Below the pieces are notes generated by a model, which saw only the letters and a list, made by a program, of their open reading frames with translations, had not been told where the DNA came from and searched no databases. Shown here in pieces: positions 1-40,799 of a stretch of 40,799 nt of DNA (positions are counted from its first letter, which is position 1; every line of letters starts with the position of its first letter). The position numbers and the translations under genes were made by a program. Origin of the DNA: a virus (taxonomy: Duplodnaviria; Heunggongvirae; Uroviricota; Caudoviricetes); IMG/VR virus record IMGVR_UViG_2698536687_000008, positions 1 to 40,799 of that record. The stretch is one strand, 5' to 3'.

Positions 1-933
1 ATGGACAACGACAAAATTGATCAACACAGCGACGAAATTGAAGTTGAGAGCGAAGAAAAAGAGCGCGGCAAAAAAATAGAAATAGATGAAGACCGACTCC
101 CCTCCCGGGCGATGGCAATTCATGAGCATATCCGCCAGGATGGTGAAAAAGAGCTGGAACGCGACGCAATGGCGCTACTGTGGTCAGCCATTGCGGCGGG
201 TCTGTCGATGGGCGCTTCGTTACTGGCAAAAGGGATATTTCAAGTCGAACTGGAAGGTGTGCCGGGCAGCTTCTTGCTGGAGAATCTCGGTTATACCTTT
301 GGTTTTATTATCGTCATTATGGCCCGCCAGCAATTATTTACCGAAAATACCGTGACTGCGGTACTACCCGTCATGCAAAAACCGACAATGAGCAACGTCG
401 GCTTACTTATACGGTTATGGGGCGTCGTGCTGCTGGGTAATATTCTCGGGACAGGTATTGCGGCGTGGGCATTTGAATATATGCCTATCTTCAATGAAGA
501 AACTCGCGATGCATTTGTCAAAATCGGCATGGATGTGATGAAGAACACCCCCAGCGAGATGTTTGCCAACGCGATCATTTCCGGCTGGCTGATCGCCACT
601 ATGGTTTGGATGTTTCCTGCAGCGGGTGCGGCAAAGATTGTGGTGATTATATTGATGACCTGGCTTATTGCCCTGGGTGACACCACCCATATCGTGGTCG
701 GTTCTGTTGAAATCCTCTATCTGGTGTTTAACGGTACGCTGCACTGGAGCGATTTCATCTGGCCCTTCGCACTACCTACTTTAGCGGGGAACATCTGCGG
801 CGGCACCTTTATCTTCGCGTTAATGAGTCATGCACAGATTCGTAACGACATGAGCAATAAGCGTAAAGCAGAAGCACGCCAAAAAGCAGAACGTGCGGAA
901 AACATTAAGAAAAATTATAAAAACCCGGCATAA
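1..933 (+). CDS. yfdC: Formate/nitrite transporter family inner membrane protein YfdC
   Basis: Complete 310-aa ORF from ATG at position 1; multi-TM protein recognised from memory as E. coli YfdC, the chromosomal gene flanking argW. Confidence 0.88.
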   Translation: MDNDKIDQHSDEIEVESEEKERGKKIEIDEDRLPSRAMAIHEHIRQDGEKELERDAMALLWSAIAAGLSMGASLLAKGIFQVELEGVPGSFLLENLGYTFGFIIVIMARQQLFTENTVTAVLPVMQKPTMSNVGLLIRLWGVVLLGNILGTGIAAWAFEYMPIFNEETRDAFVKIGMDVMKNTPSEMFANAIISGWLIATMVWMFPAAGAAKIVVIILMTWLIALGDTTHIVVGSVEILYLVFNGTLHWSDFIWPFALPTLAGNICGGTFIFALMSHAQIRNDMSNKRKAEARQKAERAENIKKNYKNPA

Positions 934-1008: not shown

Positions 1009-1083
1009 GTCCTCTTAGTTAAATGGATATAACGAGCCCCTCCTAAGGGCTAATTGCAGGTTCGATTCCTGCAGGGGACACCA
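1009..1083 (+). tRNA. argW: tRNA-Arg (anticodon CCU)
   Basis: 75-nt cloverleaf GTCCTCTTAGTT...GCAGGGGACACCA with anticodon loop CTCCTAA and encoded CCA end; matches argW from memory. Confidence 0.95.
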
Positions 1084-1244
1084 TTTATCAGTTCGCTCCC
1101 ATCCGTACCAGTCCGCAAAATCCCCTGAATATCAAGCCTTCCGTAGATTAGCAGTTCGTCATGGTTCGCGTCAGATCGTTGACAGCCGCACTCCATGACG
1201 GGTAAAAAGTGGATAAAATAATTTTACCCACCGGATTTTTACCC

Positions 1245-2402
1245 ATGCTCACCGTTAAGCAGATTGAAGCAGCAAAGCCGAAAGAAAAACCATATCGCCT
1301 TCTCGATGGTAATGGCCTGTACCTTTATGTCCCTGTATCCGGGAAAAAGGTATGGCAGCTTCGCTACAAGATTGACGGTAAGGAAAAAATACTGACCGTA
1401 GGAAAATATCCGCTAATGACTTTGCAGGAGGCAAGAGATAAAGCATGGACCGCGAGGAAAGACATCTCGGTTGGCATCGATCCGGTAAAAGCGAAAAAGG
1501 CTTCGTCTAACAACAATTCCTTTAGTGCGATTTACAAGGAATGGTACGAGCACAAGAAGCAAGTCTGGTCAGTAGGCTATGCAAACGAACTTGCCAAAAT
1601 GTTTGACGACGACATTTTACCCATCATCGGCGGCCTTGAAATTCAGGATATTGAGCCGATGCAACTGCTGGAAGTAATCCGCAGATTTGAAGATCGCGGT
1701 GCAATGGAGCGAGCCAACAAAGCCCGCAGAAGATGCGGAGAGGTTTTCCGTTACGCTATTGTCACCGGAAGGGCTAAATATAACCCGGCACCTGACCTTG
1801 CAGACGCCATGAAAGGATACCGCAAGAAGAACTTCCCGTTTCTTCCTGCAGACCAGATCCCGGCATTCAACAAAGCACTGGCAACATTTTCAGGAAGTAT
1901 CGTATCGCTTATTGCGACTAAAGTTTTACGCTACACCGCCCTAAGAACGAAAGAACTTCGTTCCATGCTATGGAAGAACGTCGATTTTGAAAACAGGATT
2001 ATCACCATCGACGCCAGTGTGATGAAGGGTCGAAAAATTCATGTGGTCCCGATGTCAGACCAGGTGGTTGAACTTCTTACTACGCTAAGCTCAATCACCA
2101 AACCAGTATCAGAGTTTGTTTTTGCCGGACGCAACGATAAGAAGAAGCCAATCTGCGAGAACGCGGTGCTACTTGTGATCAAACAAATCGGCTATGAAGG
2201 TCTGGAAAGCGGTCACGGATTCAGGCATGAATTCAGCACGATTATGAACGAGCACGAATGGCCTGCTGACGCTATTGAAGTGCAACTAGCACATGCCAAC
2301 GGCGGATCTGTGCGCGGTATTTACAACCATGCTCAGTATCTAGATAAGCGCAGAGAAATGATGCAATGGTGGTCGGACTGGATTGATGAAAAGGTGGAGT
2401 GA
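1245..2402 (+). CDS. intS: Tyrosine recombinase, P4-type prophage integrase
   Basis: ORF track frame opens at GTG 1209; first ATG at 1245 gives MLTVKQIEAAKPKEK..., 385 aa, recognised as KplE1/CPS-53 IntS; tRNA-adjacent position. Confidence 0.9.
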   Translation: MLTVKQIEAAKPKEKPYRLLDGNGLYLYVPVSGKKVWQLRYKIDGKEKILTVGKYPLMTLQEARDKAWTARKDISVGIDPVKAKKASSNNNSFSAIYKEWYEHKKQVWSVGYANELAKMFDDDILPIIGGLEIQDIEPMQLLEVIRRFEDRGAMERANKARRRCGEVFRYAIVTGRAKYNPAPDLADAMKGYRKKNFPFLPADQIPAFNKALATFSGSIVSLIATKVLRYTALRTKELRSMLWKNVDFENRIITIDASVMKGRKIHVVPMSDQVVELLTTLSSITKPVSEFVFAGRNDKKKPICENAVLLVIKQIGYEGLESGHGFRHEFSTIMNEHEWPADAIEVQLAHANGGSVRGIYNHAQYLDKRREMMQWWSDWIDEKVE

Positions 2403-2554
2403 TCCACCTTAACCACTATCGAAGAGCACAAAGCCTTGCAATCCAGCGCAAAGCTTTGTTTGTCTCAGTTTTGTCTTATCAACCACAGCAAGTATCGATC
2501 GTTTAAGATTTGGATGATAGACTTCATGCCTTTGATTATTAGCTGATAGAATAA

Positions 2555-2917
2555 ATGTTAAAGCTATTTGCAAAGTACACCTCGATTGGTGTGCTGAACA
2601 CACTTATACACTGGGTGGTTTTTGGTGTATGTATCTATGCCGCGCATACCAATCAGGCTCTGGCAAACTTCGCAGGTTTCGTTGTGGCTGTGAGTTTTAG
2701 CTTCTTCGCGAATGCAAGATTCACATTCAAAGCATCGACTACAACGATGCGCTACATGTTATATGTCGGGTTCATGGGAACACTGAGTGCTACTGTTGGA
2801 TGGGCTGCTGATAGATGTTCACTTCCTCCAATTGTCACTCTTGTCACCTTCTCCGCCATCAGCCTGGTGTGCGGTTTCGTCTATTCAAAGTTCATTGTCT
2901 TTAGGGATGCGAAATGA
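2555..2917 (+). CDS. gtrA: Bactoprenol-linked glucose translocase (flippase) GtrA
   Basis: 120-aa four-TM protein of the GtrA family; first gene of a gtrABS operon. Confidence 0.88.
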
Positions 2918-3840
2918 AGATATCTCTTGTAGTTCCTGTCTTCAATGAAGAAGAAGCGATACCAATTTTTTATAAAACGGTACGAGAGTTCGAAGAGTTG
3001 AAGCCATATGAAGTGGAAATTGTTTTCATAAATGACGGAAGCAAAGACTCTACGGAGTCAATTATTAATGCTCTGGCTGTTTCAGATCCCCTAGTTGTTC
3101 CGCTGTCATTTACGCGCAACTTTGGTAAAGAACCAGCATTGTTTGCAGGATTAGACCATGCAACTGGGGATGCTATAATCCCAATTGATGTTGACCTGCA
3201 AGACCCGATTGAGGTTATTCCTCATCTTATTGAAAAGTGGCAGGCAGGTGCTGATATGGTGCTTGCTAAACGATCTGACCGCTCAACGGATGGTAGACTG
3301 AAGAGGAAAACCGCCGAGTGGTTCTATAAGCTGCATAACAAAATCAGCAACCCGCAGATCGAGGAAAATGTTGGAGATTTCAGGCTAATGTCTCGCGAGG
3401 TGGTAGAAAACATTAAGCTCATGCCTGAGCGCAACCTTTTCATGAAGGGTGTTTTGAGTTGGGTTGGTGGTCGCACTGATATCGTTGATTATGCCCGCGC
3501 AGAACGTGTTGCTGGCAGTACCAAGTTCAACGGATGGAAGTTGTGGAATCTTGCTCTTGAGGGAATTACGAGCTTCTCGACTTTTCCGCTACGTATGTGG
3601 ACTTACATCGGCCTTCTCGTCGCTGGCTTAGCATTTACATATGGCGCATGGATGATTCTGGACACTCTGGCGTTTGGAAACCCGGTTAGAGGTTATCCAT
3701 CCCTGCTGGTATCGATACTTTTCTTGGGCGGGATTCAGTTGATCGGTATAGGGGTACTTGGTGAATACATCGGAAGGATTTATATCGAGGTTAAACAGCG
3801 TCCAAGATATATTTTAAAGGGTAAGAATAAAAATGATTAA
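2914..3840 (+). CDS. gtrB: Bactoprenol glucosyltransferase GtrB (GT2 family)
   Basis: 308 aa with N-terminal GT2 domain (VVPVFNEEE...DGSKD...DVDLQDP) and C-terminal TM helices; start overlaps gtrA stop. Confidence 0.9.
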
Positions 3841-5287
3841 CAACTCAAAACGTTACTCGTATGTTATTTTTATATTTATATTGCCAATTATCCTAGCAAA
3901 TCAATTTTATGTTGATGATATTGGGCGAACGACTGTTGGTTATACTAAATGGGGTGTGGACGGGAGGCCTGTAGCTGATATAGTAATGTCAGTTCTCAAT
4001 CTTAGCTCCAGAATCGTCGATCTTGCACCTCTACCAATCATTCTTGCTTCTGTGCTGCTTGCAATATCTTTTGCATGTTACAGAAAGAGGTTTCTTGATG
4101 GGGGAAAATGGAGCTTTATTATACCTCTGGCATTCATGGCGAATCCAGCTATTATATCAATGTTCTCTTATCGGTTTGATGTTTTAACTTTCAGTTTCTC
4201 CATTGCATCTGCATTTGCTCTCTTTGCAATTAAGTGCAAAAGACTGGCTCATGAATTAATAATAGGCACCGCATTTGTAGTGATAGTGCTTGGCACTTAT
4301 CAGGCAGTCATTAATGTCGTTGCGATTTTATTAATATGTGAAGTAATAGTTAACATGGCCAGATTTACTGACCCGCAGTTAATACTTAAAAGGGTTGCAT
4401 TACGTATAATGCAGGTTTTAGTAGGTGGTGTGATATACGTGAAATTCATATTACCCATAACTTTTAGCGGGCATTATTCATCTAATCACCCAAGAATATC
4501 AAATGATATATTTGGTGCACTAAAGAATAACAGCTTAAAGTATTACGATTTTGCTTCTACAAATTTTTACAGGGTTATCGGTGGTGAATTATTACTCCTG
4601 TCAGCTTTAGCTTGCATTATTATGACGGCGTTTCTGAGTTACAAATACGTTAAATGTAAAGGCCTAAACTGGAAAGTATTTAACGTTATAACTGGAGCGA
4701 TACTCGCAACAGCAATCGCTATGCCAATGACTATGGGGGCATTGCTGGTTCTCGCCAACCCATTGGGAGGAGTTCACTTATACATGTCGGTTGGAGTTTT
4801 TTATGTCCTCATGAGTACATTGCTATATTATTGCTTTAAAGAACATAGATACGTAACATCAATTACATTAATACCCGTATTGTATTCTATGATTTTAATG
4901 TATGCATACGGAAATGCTTTGAAGGCTCAGGAAAGGATAAATAAAGTAGTTCTTTCTGAAATTATGCAATCCATTCGCGACGCTGGTAGTGATAATGTTA
5001 GCATTGTGTTTACCGGCACAGCACCAAGATCCGAAGCTGTAAAAAATGCAGCATTAAACTTTCCTTTGATAAACTATTCAGTCACAGATTACTTCTGGAA
5101 CTGGTATTGGGGAAGTGCGTACATGTCATTTAATGGGATAAAGAATACATACATGCCAGCAAACAAGGCTAAAAATTACATTTCTCATAAATGTGAAGGT
5201 AACCTATCCTTTCAGGGGCAATGGCTAAATTCCTATATCAAGGATAGCGTTTTGATTGTTGATTTTGATAAAAAATCCTGCCAATAA
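3833..5287 (+). CDS. Serotype-specific O-antigen glucosyltransferase (GtrS/GtrC-type polytopic membrane protein)
   Basis: 484-aa multi-TM protein directly after gtrB; strongly AT-rich coding sequence typical of horizontally acquired gtr type-specific genes. Confidence 0.75.
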
Positions 5288-5301
5288 AGTCTATTGGCAG
5301 G
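5270..5301 (-). terminator. Rho-independent terminator ending the late (tailspike) transcript
   Basis: 10-bp perfect stem CCTGCCAATA/TATTGGCAGG with 5-nt loop, followed on the minus strand by ATTTTTTAT; overlaps gtrS stop codon. Confidence 0.6.
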
Positions 5302-5322
5302 GGTTTCCCGGCCTAAAATCCA

Positions 5323-7482
5323 TCAATAGGTATAAATAGGTTGATCTTCTACAGGCACGCACTTCATTCTGAAGAATGAATAATAACCTGAATTACCTGT
5401 GAAAGTAAGAGTTAATGTGCTACCAGTGAATGTTGCTGTGGGTGCTGGTATTAATGTGGTCCCAGCCTTCGAGCGTCCCTGGTAGCCAGTAACAGTTGTT
5501 GTTGTTCCTACCAACACTGTAAATCTTAAATCCTGCTGTACAGTGGATGCGGTGTTTCTCATCAAAAGCCTAACGCTATACTCACCTCCATCTGCAATAT
5601 TTCCAATCTGGATACTAAAGCTCACTGTACCATTTGCAGTTACAGTAGGAGTTCGCATTGTATACTGGTCTAGCAATCCAACAAATTGAACTGTAAAAAG
5701 CCTCTGCGCTGAAAGTGTAGTCGATAAGCTATCTGTGATAGGGTGTTGGTTTTTTATGACAATATTGTAGGAGCCATATCCTAAATCTTTAGTAAGATTC
5801 TGGAATTTTGTTACCACTCTTGGATTTTCAATTATCACTCGTGATCTTTCAGATGGGAGGTATTCTCCTGAAGTAGTGTCAAAAACATTCCCTGACTGCA
5901 CCGCCAGATCTTTAATGTCGTGATTAAAGTATGTCCCTGTTGAATAAAACTCTGAGGCAACACCATGCACAAAAACACGATGCCCTGTCTCGCTTGCAGG
6001 TACTCCAATCCATTCTGTATACCCACCAAACATATTAACATTGCCGCAATAAAAAAGAGCAAACTCTCTGTTGTACCCTTCTATTGTTACGCCATACAGG
6101 TCTATATCGAAGCTATTGTAAGCATACATAAATGTAGTTACATATGCGATATTCGGTCTATTAGAATCACTTATGCTTCGATGGAACCATTGCTGAGTAC
6201 CATCAGCAAAAAGGAAAGAAGTGTTACCTGTAAAATAACCAGCATCTATGCGTATAGCGGTGCATTGATACACAAGAAATGTTGCGTATTTAGCACCAAA
6301 AGCAAAGCAATCGCGGATAGAGATATCCCATGAACCATTCAACCAGTACCCAACCTTGCAATTATACACCGCGACTTTATTAAGTCTGGAGGCTGGCACG
6401 CGCCAAATTCGAACACCGCATTGTGTATCTGCAAGACCGATAAATACTATGTTTTCCAGGGTAGCCCCGTAATACCCATCACTTTCAGTACGACCGTATA
6501 ACATTTCGTCTGTTGTCGTATACCGCTTAGAGTTATCCTTTAGCCATGGAGCTGTGTCAAACATTATCTTTGAGGTTTCCATAGTTGGCATAGCCACAAT
6601 GCAGGCGCATCCAGCCCGGGAAAAACGAAATCCTGGACTGCCGCCGGTTCCCAAAATTCGCACATTAGGTGCACCATAGATGGTGTCATTGATGTAGAGT
6701 AGCCCCGCTGGAATTACCACATCACCCCCCTGATGGCTATCCATATCCTTATCTAAGTATGGGTTTAAGTAGGATATCGCGGCGTTAAGCATAGGTGCGC
6801 TATCAAAAGTGTTGTCGTTAATTTTAGCACCAAACTCCAGAGGGGATACTGTGCGATTAAGATACGCGGCTACAAACTCTCTCTTCCAGCGTCCGGTTCC
6901 GACATTGCCTGTTGGGTTAATGGTATAGCCTCCGTCATCAGTATCAGTGCTGGTTGAATTCCAGCGGAAATATCCTCCGCCATAACCAGCTCCAAGGTGA
7001 TAAGAATCAACATAGACTCTTCCATTTTCCTTAACTGATGAGTATGCAGTAAATGCTCGTAGATCTGCTATTGATGAGAATGTACCAAATAATGCATAAG
7101 AATCAGGCGCAGACATCTTGGCAAGCCATTCTGCAGAAAACTGATCCGGGTCATACTTCAGCACATTAGGAAAATAGAACTGCTGCACACCGTATGCATC
7201 ATAAACAGCCATCGAATGGCCTTGCACAGTTACGAACTTGGCAATCTGTCCGTTATATACCGGGTAACCAGCCGCATTAATGATGATTGGTTGCGAAACA
7301 GGAACGTGAGAACCGTCTTCGTTCTCCACATAAACCTGAATCTGGTTTTCAGGATTTACCGGGTCAGTGTCAATTTTACCGATATAAATTTTGCCATTGG
7401 CTACGGCTTTAAAAGAATGAGCCATGGTGAAGAGTTGCGAAGGCATGCTGACCACAACATTGGCATTTATTGAATCTGTCAT
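5323..7482 (-). CDS. Tailspike protein (P22 gp9-like head-binding domain plus divergent beta-helix receptor-binding/O-antigen-cleaving domain)
   Basis: Start ATG at 7482 gives [18 protein letters not shown]...; first ~110 aa match the P22/Sf6/HK620 tailspike N-terminus from memory; rest is divergent. Confidence 0.9.
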
Positions 7483-7569
7483 TTTAATTTCTCTATATGT
7501 TAAGCAAGCAATATTCATTGCTAGCATGTTTTTTGTATAATGAGTGCACTTTATTTAAAGGTGGTTAAC

Positions 7570-8078
7570 ATGAACTGGAACGAAGTATTCGTATTAAAAG
7601 ACGATGGACTCCTGTACTGGAGTGACCAATATCTTTCAAGACCCAAAATGTTCAATATCTCTAAAGAAAAGCCTGCAGGACATATATTCAAGGACAAGAA
7701 CAGGAAAACCTCTTATATAATTATTAGGTATCAAGATAAAATATACGCCGCCCATAGGATAATATGGGAAATGTTTTATGGTGAAATCCCTTCCGGAATG
7801 CAAATTGACCATAAAGATGGTAACGGGTTAAATAATTCAATAGACAACCTGCGTCTAGTTAGTCTCGGTGAAAACCTAAAAACAAATCTAAATACACAAA
7901 CAATACATCTGGGTGTGCTGGGGTTTCATGGCATAAGACCCATAAAAAGTGGGTGGCATATATTAGCGACGCAGGGAAGCGCATTAATCTCGGATACTTT
8001 AAGAGTCTCGATGATGCAATTGCTGTAAGGCGTGAGGCTGAAAAGACCTATGGTTATCATGAGAATCATGGTAGGTGA
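7570..8078 (+). pseudogene. HNH-AP2 homing endonuclease, reading frame broken in an A-rich tract
   Basis: Frame A (7570-~7880) carries the HNH motif IDHKDGNGLNNSIDNLRLV; the AP2 domain GVSWHKTHKKWVAYISDAGKRINLGYFKSLDDAIAVRREAEKTYGYHENHGR continues in the -1 frame to a stop at 8076-8078. Confidence 0.6.
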
Positions 8079-8209
8079 TATCTGACATTTCATTGCTCCA
8101 GACGAATGATATGATGCAACCATGATGTGATTGCATACCGAAATGGTACTATTGAGTATTTATCCAGTAGGTTACGATGCCATTCCACCCAACTGGTGAG
8201 GCATCAAGG

Positions 8210-8470
8210 ATGTACAGCAAATACGACGAGGCGAAGTTTCACTTGAGACTTCCGCATGAACTCCACGCGAAAATTAAGCAGCGTGCGAAGATGAATAACA
8301 GGTCGCTGAACTCAGAGATAATTGCAGCGATTGAAGAATCATTGGCTAAACAAAGCTCTGCACCAGTTTACATTGACGATGCAGAGCGTATGGCAGAACA
8401 ACAATCTGATATGGTTAAGAAAATTGTCTTTGATACGCTCAAAGAGATATATAAAAAAGACAGCAGTTAA
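8210..8470 (+). CDS. Mnt-like ribbon-helix-helix repressor (Arc/MetJ superfamily)
   Basis: 86 aa from ATG 8210; KFHLRLPHELHAKIKQRAKMNNRSLNSEII RHH motif and C-terminal DAERMAEQQSDMVKKIVFDTLKEIYKK resembling P22 Mnt. Confidence 0.75.
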   Translation: MYSKYDEAKFHLRLPHELHAKIKQRAKMNNRSLNSEIIAAIEESLAKQSSAPVYIDDAERMAEQQSDMVKKIVFDTLKEIYKKDSS

Positions 8471-8490
8471 CCATCAGTTACGGAGGATTT

Positions 8491-8568
8491 ATGCAAAGAG
8501 ATATGCTGAATATTGCGTTCTACATATTTGGTTTTTGCACGTTCCTGGTGTTTGCGAAGCTATTCTGA
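8491..8568 (+). CDS. Hypothetical 25-aa hydrophobic peptide
   Basis: ATG preceded by RBS ACGGAGG; encodes MQRDMLNIAFYIFGFCTFLVFAKLF; very short, unverified. Confidence 0.25.
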   Translation: MQRDMLNIAFYIFGFCTFLVFAKLF

Positions 8569-10557
8569 CAACGCATCAGACTTGGCACCCTGAGTAATGG
8601 CGTTAATGGCCTTTTGCGCCTGCTGCATGGCTTTCTCAAACGCTGTTGATCCGCGTGGGGTATTTGCCATTCGGAGCATTGCATTTCTGAATGGCTCGCT
8701 CTCATAGGCGCGAGTAAGAAGTCCGTAGCTTACCGCTGCGCCAGTTGTCGCCGGGTTCATTGCCGTCCCATACCCAATAATGAACGGGATGGTTTGCTGC
8801 CCTGTTGGTGTTGTTACTGCTGCTTTTGCAGCCTGTTGCGTGGATTGCAGGTAGTTTTTCAATCCTTTCAGATAAGCAGCATCCTGACCTTTAAATGTGA
8901 TGCCAGTCTGGTTTTGCAGGATGTTAAGCTGTCGAAGGAACTGGTCAGGGGAACCACCTGATTTCTCCATCGCCTTTCCAATGATGCCATTGCGCATTTG
9001 CGCCCTGCCAACACGACCAACTGAGTTATACAGTGTCTTAATTTCAGATTTGTTCTTGCTGAATAGCATGTTATTGACAACTTCCGGCGTCAGATCGCCT
9101 TTCATGAGAACATTCTTCAGCCTGGTATTCTTGAGTTTCGCCGCTTCGTCAGCGTAGACGGCATTGGCCTGCTGATATTTACGGAGAGTATCGTTGCCAA
9201 GATTCTGACCAATGGCACCATTGATATCGTCGGTCATCGCCTTGTAAACGCGCTGAATGGCGGCATCGGAACGGTTTGGTAACACTGGTCGCTCACCCTT
9301 CACGTCCATTCTGAACTGGCTGCGCAGATCGCTTAATTGCTTCAAGTCCAGATTTACCGGACCATCAGGGCCAGCATTGCGAACAAGCTCATCACGATAT
9401 GACTGAAGTTTTGAAATAGTCTCGTTATCAGCGACCTTACCAAGCTTCTGCAGATTAGATATCTCGGTATCAATCTGCTGAATTGCTCGCGCAGGCAGGA
9501 TATTGACTCCCGCCATTGCATTCTGAACCTGCTCAAGACGGTTCCCTGCAGCGCGACGAATTCCTGATGTTTTCGCTTTAAGGCTGTCAATAATAACCGC
9601 TGGATCATACTCACCGAATTTATCAGCAAATCTCTGCACCAACTGGCTTCTCGCTTCCTGTTGCGTTGCTCTCATTCCGCTTGTGCCAGCCAGAGGGATA
9701 TTTTCTGCTGTAGTCTGCGCCATTTTTCCGACGCGGGAAGTGGGTTGTAACAGGTCTGTGGTGTGCAGAGGAACTCCTTCACGCTCTGCAAATCTGATAG
9801 CCTGCTGCGCTTCTGGCGCGATAGCACCACGAACGCCACGATAAGCAGCACCTAATCCACGTCCAGCGGCGTTAATAGCACCGCCAGCAAGTACACCAAC
9901 GCCTAAATCGGTGGCGAGTGCTTCCGCATCATCTTTCGCACTATTTGCAGCAAGTGATCCAACTGCGTTTTCTGCTAGAAGGCGAGTTGCCCCCTGAGCA
10001 ATTCGACCAGCAAGTGTTGGTGCCTGCGCTGCCGCTCTCTCAACGCCAGCAGGAGTGAGGTAAGGCAATGCTTCAGCAAATACCCTTCCCTCTGTCGTTT
10101 GTGGAGTCAGCGCGCCTTGCTGAAGGCCAAAGTCCTGCTCTAATCCCTGCGTTGTTACTCGTGGCGCTGGTTGATATGTACCATCGCCAATGCCGAGTTT
10201 ACCGCCAGCCCAAGCCGCCGCGCTTGTTACAGCATCGGCAACTGATGCAGGTATGTTTGCCACGTTCACGCCAGCCTGCACCAGTCCGCGACCAGTCTCT
10301 TTTACTGCTTCGCCAAGATCAGACATAAATCCACTTTGCTGTGGTTGTTGCTGTGCAACTGGTTGCTGTGTCTCCACTTTCTGCACAGATGGCAATGGAT
10401 AGGCAGCATAGAAAGCTTGCTTAGCCTGCTCTGCATTTTCTCCGGCTTGCGGGGCCACGACTTCATTGAAGTATTGCTCCTGAGCCTGCGCTTTTTGTTC
10501 TGGTGCTAACGCCTGATACTGTGGAGAGGCGATAACATCTTTCCATGCTTTAGCCAT
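8560..10557 (-). CDS. Ejection (injection) protein, P22 gp16-like
   Basis: 665-aa Ala/Gln-rich protein in the gp16 position of P22 gene order (last of the 7-20-16 ejection set). Confidence 0.8.
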   Translation of the reverse strand: MAKAWKDVIASPQYQALAPEQKAQAQEQYFNEVVAPQAGENAEQAKQAFYAAYPLPSVQKVETQQPVAQQQPQQSGFMSDLGEAVKETGRGLVQAGVNVANIPASVADAVTSAAAWAGGKLGIGDGTYQPAPRVTTQGLEQDFGLQQGALTPQTTEGRVFAEALPYLTPAGVERAAAQAPTLAGRIAQGATRLLAENAVGSLAANSAKDDAEALATDLGVGVLAGGAINAAGRGLGAAYRGVRGAIAPEAQQAIRFAEREGVPLHTTDLLQPTSRVGKMAQTTAENIPLAGTSGMRATQQEARSQLVQRFADKFGEYDPAVIIDSLKAKTSGIRRAAGNRLEQVQNAMAGVNILPARAIQQIDTEISNLQKLGKVADNETISKLQSYRDELVRNAGPDGPVNLDLKQLSDLRSQFRMDVKGERPVLPNRSDAAIQRVYKAMTDDINGAIGQNLGNDTLRKYQQANAVYADEAAKLKNTRLKNVLMKGDLTPEVVNNMLFSKNKSEIKTLYNSVGRVGRAQMRNGIIGKAMEKSGGSPDQFLRQLNILQNQTGITFKGQDAAYLKGLKNYLQSTQQAAKAAVTTPTGQQTIPFIIGYGTAMNPATTGAAVSYGLLTRAYESEPFRNAMLRMANTPRGSTAFEKAMQQAQKAINAITQGAKSDALSE

Positions 10558-40598: not shown

Positions 40599-40799
40599 AT
40601 GCAACACGAACTACAACCTGATTCACTGGTTGATTTGAAATTCATCATGGCTGATACTGGCTTTGGTAAAACCTTCATCTACGACCGAATTAAGTCCGGC
40701 GACCTGCCTAAAGCCAAAGTTATCCACGGTCGAGCAAGATGGTTATATCGTGACCATTGTGAATTCAAAAATAAGCTCTTAAGCCGCGCTAATGGGTAA
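40599..40799 (+). CDS. torI: Excisionase / recombination directionality factor TorI
   Basis: 66 aa, MQHELQPDSLVDLKFIMADTGFGKTFIYDRIKSGDLPKAKV..., recognised as KplE1 TorI; stop codon is the last three bases of the window. Confidence 0.9.
   Translation: MQHELQPDSLVDLKFIMADTGFGKTFIYDRIKSGDLPKAKVIHGRARWLYRDHCEFKNKLLSRANG

Follow-up and report, generated by a model that had tools for sequence, protein, structure and literature searches.

The stretch of DNA considered here (the window) comprises positions 1–40,799 of the IMG/VR virus record IMGVR_UViG_2698536687_000008, which we assign to an Escherichia coli P22-like prophage integrated at argW, with the region under study forming its lysogenic-conversion end. 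The order along the window is argW, the integrase gene intS, gtrA, gtrB, gtrC and, in convergent orientation, a tailspike gene (Table 1). The Pfam families PF04138, PF00535 and PF14264 follow one another in this order and in the same direction, which represents a full gtrABC operon beside intS and argW; stop and start codons overlap throughout the operon (the gtrA stop with the gtrB start in ATGA, and gtrB with the gtrC start by 8 nt). A first-pass annotation, made by reading the DNA alone, covered only the 3' end of this operon, gtrA and gtrB lying directly upstream, and proposed that the phage modifies the same O-antigen that its tailspike recognises. Our analysis favours a reading of this kind: gtrABC probably glucosylates the host O-antigen that is read by the convergent tailspike, a lysogenic conversion which would lower the adsorption of the phage itself.

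Divergent GtrC facing a P22-anchored tailspike

The first two Gtr proteins have close relatives in known phages. GtrA is identical at the amino acid level by 92.5% to the protein of SfV, by 97.5% to that of Hf4s and by 80% to that of P22; the corresponding values for GtrB are 89%, 94.8% and 88%, and gtrAB as a whole is 84–85% identical in nucleotides to the Shigella flexneri serotype-converting phages (the group compared included SfV, SfII, SfI, SfIV and SfX). Since GtrB is 88–89% identical to the SfV and P22 proteins, glucose is the probable sugar, and the donor is presumably undecaprenyl-phosphate-glucose.

GtrC is different. It is an end-to-end match to phrog_4829 (“GtrC-like O-antigen conversion”, 4e-79), and P22 GtrC (485 aa), with 26% identity over 89% of the protein, is the sole characterised relative found; BLASTP detected no similarity to SfV GtrV (417 aa) or Hf4s GtrC (410 aa). 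The locus thereby displays the Gtr pattern of conserved GtrA and GtrB accompanied by a divergent GtrC. A confident structure model has the GT-C fold, and by this model GtrC appears to be a polyprenyl-phosphate-sugar-dependent enzyme of that class with an acidic motif near the N-terminus. The identical protein occurs on 57 contigs. The gene contains 36.6% GC versus 48.6% in the remaining prophage. It is full length and encodes all residues that are invariant in the 18-member GtrC family, so that the truncation named by the first-pass annotation as a possible objection was not found. The label “gtrS-type” used there was correct as to the Gtr type and loose beyond it, since among characterised proteins only P22 GtrC proved related, in a comparison to which the K-12 protein GtrS (YfdI) did not belong.

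The gtr leader aligns closely with those of SfV, of the related argW remnant L001 described below and, above all, of Hf4s; the homology with SfV starts at window position 2430. In P22, the gtr switch comprises four GATC sites (−135, −122, −71 and −58) that form two pairs 13 bp apart and overlap three OxyR half-sites upstream of gtrA (PMC2909390). In contrast, the window leader has a single GATC (position 2497, −58) and no OxyR half-site at a match of at least 8/10, and the OxyR A/B region of P22 is absent from the alignment. A Dam/OxyR phase variation switch of the P22 type was thus looked for and not found, and we infer that the operon is expressed in the lysogen without varying in the P22 manner, because Hf4s, which has the same leader type, converts its lysogens.

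The tailspike open reading frame (ORF) extends to an in-frame ATG 45 nt upstream of the start adopted here (5323–7527, 734 aa), although the P22 alignment and the gene call in a related locus (L046) favour ATG 7482. Its head-binding region is 74% identical to residues 1–114 of P22 gp9 and in PDB sequence searches also matches the N-terminus of the Sf6 tailspike. The body has no similarity by sequence to the bodies of P22, Sf6 or HK620, and the PDB sequence matches beyond residue 130 are limited to Pantoea WceF (to residue 281) and Fri1 gp49 (residues 146–279). No body homologue was found by tblastn in 50,697 phage records or by megablast-level comparison with 5,426 complete E. coli genomes; the Pfam and NCBIfam scans of the body and a metagenome scan with the tailspike alignment gave no match, and the PHROG matches cover only the first 120–290 residues. 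A search of 5.8 billion proteins returned only 36 relatives, which carry the P22 head-binding domain or PF18668 (Tail_spike_N) at the N-terminus and, in their precomputed annotations, PF27114 (Phage_tail_beta) and often PF12708 (pectate-lyase-like). Judged by these searches, the body is a small family without a characterised member.

In the AF2 monomer model (mean predicted local distance difference test, pLDDT, 65 overall), residues 300–715 are modelled well; a strand ladder at residues 340–560 is followed by a C-terminal beta-sandwich at 600–710, both with pLDDT 75–94. Foldseek relates the model with probability 1.0 to the beta-helix depolymerases and tailspikes Sf6, CBA120 TSP2, Fri1 gp49, WceF, K2-2 TSP, Depo32 and HK620, and it is consistent with a right-handed parallel beta-helix body. 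Eight acidic residues are invariant in the tailspike family (E216, D227, D254, D309, E343, E468, E490 and D566).

The two genes are separated, stop to stop, by 35 bp (5288–5322). A hairpin at 5277–5301, with a 10-bp stem CCTGCCAATA, a 5-nt loop and the complementary arm TATTGGCAGG, overlaps the gtrC stop codon. It has folding energies of −19.6 and −20.5 kcal/mol (z −2.2 and −2.5) and is the top terminator-like site of the interval 2300–8600 in a terminator scan, which lists it on the minus strand only. On that strand, i.e., in the tailspike transcript, the hairpin is followed by a proper T-run, ATTTTTTATC, as opposed to the plus-strand (gtr) tail GGTTTCCC, a weak U-tract. The hairpin thus appears to be common to both transcripts and to look like an efficient terminator for the tailspike one only. 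In each of the 14 loci folded, a GC hairpin of unrelated sequence occupies the same position between the two genes; several of these hairpins, such as that of locus L018, are symmetric, as is the one of P22.

Most of what the first-pass annotation said about these two genes has stood: an AT-rich Gtr-type serotype-conversion glycosyltransferase gene of 484 codons (as the Pfam, PHROG and GT-C results agree) stops 35 bp short of the 3' end of a tailspike gene, which keeps the capsid-binding N-terminus of P22 and continues into a different beta-helix body. The “bidirectional hairpin” is real as a shared structure and is one-sided with respect to its T-run. The proposed comparison with typed homologues for assigning the specificity yielded no typed match to the tailspike body (P22, Sf6 and HK620 included) and, for GtrC, nothing closer than the P22 protein. 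In the searches above, no typed homologue of the body emerged that would give the O-antigen specificity, and the statement that specificity is unreadable from the sequence holds. The source labels of a GtrC cluster member (E. coli O112) and of a tailspike cluster member (O74:H39) are the only serogroup hints; in the E. coli O-antigen review that was consulted, neither O74 nor O112 is linked to gtr.

GtrC and tailspike among related loci

Loci were gathered from both sides, i.e., by homologues of GtrC and by homologues of the tailspike body. In 24 of the 31 loci with a GtrC homologue, a convergent ORF of 680–830 aa lies 35–110 bp past gtrC. Six distinct contexts combine a GtrC of at least 49% identity with an adjacent tailspike, and in all six the body belongs to the same family (62–87% identity). 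Both P22-type and siphovirus-type prophages are represented: the window; L001; L007 and L008, which are of the siphovirus type, have a tape-measure gene and carry a spike anchored by PF18668; L051/L052, from Enterobacter cancerogenus; and L053, a P22-type prophage in which gtrABC is intact and the tailspike is broken into three ORFs. At GtrC identities of 45% or below, the tailspike bodies are of other kinds. Among 16 non-redundant loci, the pairwise identities of GtrC correlate with those of the tailspike body (Spearman 0.71, from non-independent pairs dominated by two clades) but not with those of the anchor domain (0.04). Hence, GtrC type tracks the type of tailspike body and not the type of virion anchor.

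This co-occurrence is part of what gives the locus a modest interest. The arrangement as such, which the first-pass annotation had presented as noteworthy, is the canonical layout of P22, Hf4s and SfV, a known lysogenic conversion design that teaches nothing new. What goes beyond it is a GtrC clade and a tailspike-body family, both uncharacterised, whose association holds in prophages of the podovirus and of the siphovirus type and in at least two named host genera. Because they stay together, they could be typed together, so that a single biochemical assignment would carry over to many prophages and make it easier to predict E. coli O-antigen variants and phage host range.

A close relative at the same chromosomal site is an E. 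coli argW remnant (L001; also L003, GCA_001749505.1, and L014, IMG/VR UViG_2558860288_000004), which shares with the window its site and the order int-gtrABC-tailspike-mnt-gp16; gtrC is 100% identical and the tailspike is 99.7–100% identical outside a patch in its body. Unlike the window, the remnant ends after gp20, lacks an HNH insertion (see below), is only 66% identical in nucleotides over tailspike core residues 177–461, and in some copies has lost gtrA and most of gtrB. In such relatives the prophage has decayed to different degrees, and gtr tends to persist longest: L001 reads int-gtrABC-tailspike-mnt-gp16-gp20 and then host gntP, gtrA and most of gtrB are missing from L002 and L003, and L049/L050 are gtrABC-only remnants, the former of which adjoins a yfdC homologue.

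Taking L001 as the reference, we used sliding identity and breakpoints to describe the mosaic structure of the tailspike gene. Between about 3400 and 6000, an interval that takes in the whole of gtrC, the gap and the tailspike C-terminal region, window and remnant are 100% identical, as they are at 7000–7460; the identity falls to 61–66% between these stretches. The patch itself, which is 66% identical in nucleotides to L001, is 90% identical in nucleotides and 95% in amino acids to the tailspike P0002 of L006. On this siphovirus-like contig the spike is anchored differently, and no gtr genes adjoin it. According to segment-wise nearest neighbours, the tailspikes P0001 (the type carried by the argW remnant) and P0002 are both coherent throughout and the window protein is not, which is why we regard the window tailspike as the recombinant, and a recent one. 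The chimeric protein (WP_061356608.1) occurs on two E. coli contigs, the parental type on about 30; the assemblies with the window tailspike are GCA_001576035.1 and its twin.

The patch covers residues 204–291, which are poorly modelled, and the first rungs of the beta-helix. Tailspikes usually hold their substrate in this region. A clean 853-nt beta-helix patch beside an unchanged gtrC offers a natural experiment, both on which part of a tailspike sets its specificity and on the re-tuning of a tailspike against the receptor modification brought by its own phage.

Proposed function and competing explanations

We suggest that the module works as follows. In the prophage, gtrA-gtrB-gtrC would be transcribed away from intS; GtrB would transfer glucose from UDP-glucose to undecaprenyl phosphate, GtrA would flip the lipid-linked glucose to the periplasmic face, and GtrC, an enzyme with the GT-C fold, would pass it to a particular sugar in the O-antigen repeat of the host. 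The tailspike, encoded by the last gene of the late operon, would combine the head-binding domain with a parallel beta-helix body for binding, and probably also cleaving, the same O-antigen at adsorption. The hairpin in the 35-bp gap would end the tailspike transcript and mark the end of the gtr one. Lysogens would then show an altered O-antigen, which may result in a serotype change and in lower adsorption, both of this phage and of others that read the O-antigen.

Three known systems support this scheme by analogy. The Escherichia phage Hf4s (Lederbergvirus, MT833387) has the same order of xis, int, gtrA, gtrB, gtrC, convergent tailspike and gp16; the O-antigen is its receptor, and its gtr cluster is reported to stop adsorption to its own lysogens, which also exclude DT57C and not G7C or phiKT. 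However, its GtrC and the body of its tailspike (791 aa) have no BLASTP similarity to those of the window, so that the host O-antigens of the two phages are presumably different. In P22, the gene 9 tailspike likewise converges with gtrC-gtrB-gtrA across a 58-bp gap with a shared hairpin terminator, whereas attP lies between gtrA and int (in the window prophage int adjoins gtrA) and the endorhamnosidase body is unrelated in sequence to the window body. P22 gtrABC is reported to be among the prophage-expressed systems that interfere with superinfecting phages (PMC10461980). SfV shares the order int-gtrA-gtrB-gtrV, a terminator and the convergent tail-fibre end of the late operon, although it has Mu-like baseplate genes and tail fibres in place of a P22-type tailspike. 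More generally, Gtr side-branch glucosylation by prophages is a known route of E. coli serogroup diversification (PMC7685785).

The first-pass claim of a common O-antigen for modifier and receptor-binding protein thus gains from the tracking of GtrC with the body and from the Hf4s and P22 precedents, and it loses in that the pairing is not one-to-one, because the same tailspike family also stands beside an unrelated GtrC or an O-acetyltransferase. The accompanying claim of superinfection exclusion is backed by the same two precedents; that the block extends to the phage's own tailspike is a step we infer.

Several observations weigh against the proposed scheme. Besides the dependence among the pairs behind the rank correlation, the same body family (58–63% identity) occurs beside a GtrC that is only 23–27% identical (L042/L043, at 23%, and L045), adjoins an AT3-SGNH O-acetyltransferase gene in L041, and has no modification gene next to it in L006 and in the T7-like L044. 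The AF2 tailspike model is poor at residues 1–133 and 204–291, and the global template-modelling scores of its Foldseek matches are low, because residues 1–291 are poorly modelled; none of the invariant acidic residues of the tailspike family could be given a catalytic role. A simple sigma-70 promoter scan gave no site in the gtr leader. Finally, with the core swapped beside an unchanged gtrC, tailspike and GtrC may no longer be matched. Nevertheless, we read the distribution of occupants to mean that body and modifier are matched to one O-antigen backbone, for which, as in S. flexneri, there can be several different modifiers.

The O-antigen may be glucosylated for another benefit, namely serotype change (immune evasion) or the exclusion of other phages, with the phage's own tailspike tolerating the glucosylated receptor. 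We consider this a possible, though clearly less probable, explanation. It would agree with the selective exclusion by Hf4s lysogens noted above, and the recent replacement of core residues 177–461 next to a gtrC that is 100% identical implies that the present tailspike does not necessarily share the parental sensitivity to the modification. However, Hf4s itself no longer adsorbs to its own lysogens, and the interference ascribed to P22 gtrABC also speaks for an effect of gtr on superinfection.

It is rather unlikely that the adjacency is purely positional, i.e., that in lambdoid phages the slot between the last late gene and int-att is a general site of moron insertion, and that co-variation arises from physical linkage in horizontal transfer together with a shared host range and not from selection for a matched pair. 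The low GC content of gtrC against the backbone and the terminator-bounded form of the cassette would fit such an explanation. The slot may hold an O-acetyltransferase (L041) or an unrelated GtrC (L042/L043) beside the same tailspike family, and gtrABC may persist alone (the chromosomal remnant L049) or next to a broken tailspike (L053). Yet in the temperate phages of the data set the occupant of the slot is always an O-antigen modifying gene and never an unrelated moron, the GtrC clade and the body stay together across two virion types with differing flanking genes, and in the Hf4s experiment the adjacent gtr cluster alters the receptor of the phage itself.

Still lower we rate the proposal that the tailspike is a recent escape recombinant, in which the P0001-type core was replaced by that of a siphovirus-type tailspike able to bind the GtrC-glucosylated O-antigen, as a step of an arms race with gtrC unchanged; we find it improbable. 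If it were true, the phage could infect strains protected by a resident gtr remnant while carrying the same conversion operon, and the specificity of a tailspike could be re-tuned by swapping part of the beta-helix and not the whole receptor-binding domain. It seems very improbable that decay is reducing the gtr operon or the tailspike to a non-functional remnant: the close relatives L001, L002, L003 and L053 are decayed and no strong sigma-70 match lies upstream of gtrA, but the tailspike and all three gtr genes have the full length of their families with all invariant residues present, the backbone match to phage IME10 (see below) runs across structural, lysis and replication genes, and the leader matches that of Hf4s, whose cluster works.

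Prophage context and further features

Table 1. Features of the window and of two related loci discussed in the text (positions in the window unless a record is given).
Feature	Position	Strand	Basis and remarks
Host yfdC	1–933		beside argW; E. coli chromosome at the start of the window
tRNA-Arg (anticodon CCU), argW	1009..1083	+	ARAGORN; prophage integration site, attL side
IntS-type tyrosine integrase	1209..2402	+	Pfam Phage_integrase, Phage_int_M, Arm-DNA-bind_3; called intS in matching E. coli genomes
gtr leader and promoter region, 152 bp	2403..2554	+	SfV/Hf4s type; alignments with P22, SfV, Hf4s and L001 leaders
gtrA, presumed flippase for undecaprenyl-phosphate-glucose, 120 aa	2555–2917	+	Pfam GtrA_DPMS_TM (PF04138), 1e-13
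gtrB, GT2 bactoprenol glucosyltransferase, 308 aa	2914–3840	+	Pfam Glycos_transf_2 (PF00535), 2e-31
gtrC, predicted acceptor-specific O-antigen glucosyltransferase, 484 aa	3833..5287	+	Pfam Glucos_trans_II (PF14264), 1e-21
Putative intrinsic terminator of the tailspike (late) transcript	5267..5301	-	hairpin 5277–5301; T-run 5267–5276 inside the gtrC 3' end (last codons)
Tailspike, 719 aa	5323–7482	-	P22-like start at ATG 7482
Tailspike residues 462–719, distal beta-helix rungs and C-terminal beta-sandwich	5323..6099	-	99.7% nt identical to L001; AF2 ladder 450–560
Recombinant patch, residues 177–461, start of the beta-helix body	6100..6952	-	gene nt 531–1383, 853 nt; sliding identity and breakpoints
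P22-type head-binding (virion anchor) domain, residues 1–115	7138..7482	-	Pfam Head_binding (PF09008), 6e-64, residues 4–114
Insertion relative to L001, 589 bp, with HNH_3 endonuclease ORF 7540–8028	7485..8073	+	BLASTN gap; Pfam HNH_3, 1.5e-20; phrog_99
Mnt/Arc-type ribbon-helix-helix repressor	8177..8470	+	Pfam Arc, Repressor_Mnt; immI-region neighbour of the tailspike, as in P22
AT3-SGNH O-acetyltransferase, 630 aa (L041)	5132–7024 of IMGVR_UViG_2778261676_000003		replaces gtrABC between tailspike and integrase; P22-type element, body 63% identical
L044 spike	5368–7818 of IMGVR_UViG_3300045988_000065		body 61% identical, fused to T7 tail-fibre N-terminal domain and Tail_spike_N

Across all 5426 complete E. 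coli genomes, the first 2500 nt of the window match yfdC, the tRNA-Arg gene and intS. The prophage backbone and the P22-like coliphage IME10 are 96% identical over 80% of 24.5 kb, with a match that spans structural, lysis and replication genes, because of which the prophage appears complete. The argW P22-like coliphage Kapi1, which modifies the O-antigen, was considered as the identity of the window and rejected: Kapi1 is without recognisable gtr genes, and the backbone matches IME10.

Outside the temperate elements, the spike of L044 is followed by a T7-type terminase gene, and no O-antigen modification genes were seen in that locus. Given these T7-type features, the receptor-binding body looks to be circulating also in an apparently lytic phage.

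The insertion with the HNH endonuclease ORF lies between the tailspike start and mnt, and is also present in L046, which has the same tailspike. The first 21 nt of the tailspike gene differ from L001 (MTDSINA versus MSDITA, with one extra codon), which places the boundary of the insertion just inside the tailspike gene. In the phage collection, its only DNA relatives are stretches of about 65 nt within the HNH genes of Pantoea phage PdC23 and Shigella phage Sf12. An origin of the recombinant patch by co-conversion with the HNH insertion is unsupported, as the approximately 530 nt between them (6953–7482) match L001 save for the first 21 nt of the gene.

The interval between gp16 and the tailspike (7485–8560) contains only the Mnt/Arc-type repressor gene and the HNH ORF. 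In P22, ant lies just upstream of gene 9; in this interval we found no ORF of at least 95 aa as a candidate for ant or sieA, and for this reason the immI region appears reduced. At the opposite end of the window (40600–40799), a small ORF (MQHELQPDSLVDLKFIMADTGFGKTF...) resembles, on reading its sequence, an excisionase of the AlpA/Xis type; if it is one, the window would contain almost all of the prophage, beginning with attL and missing attR only narrowly.

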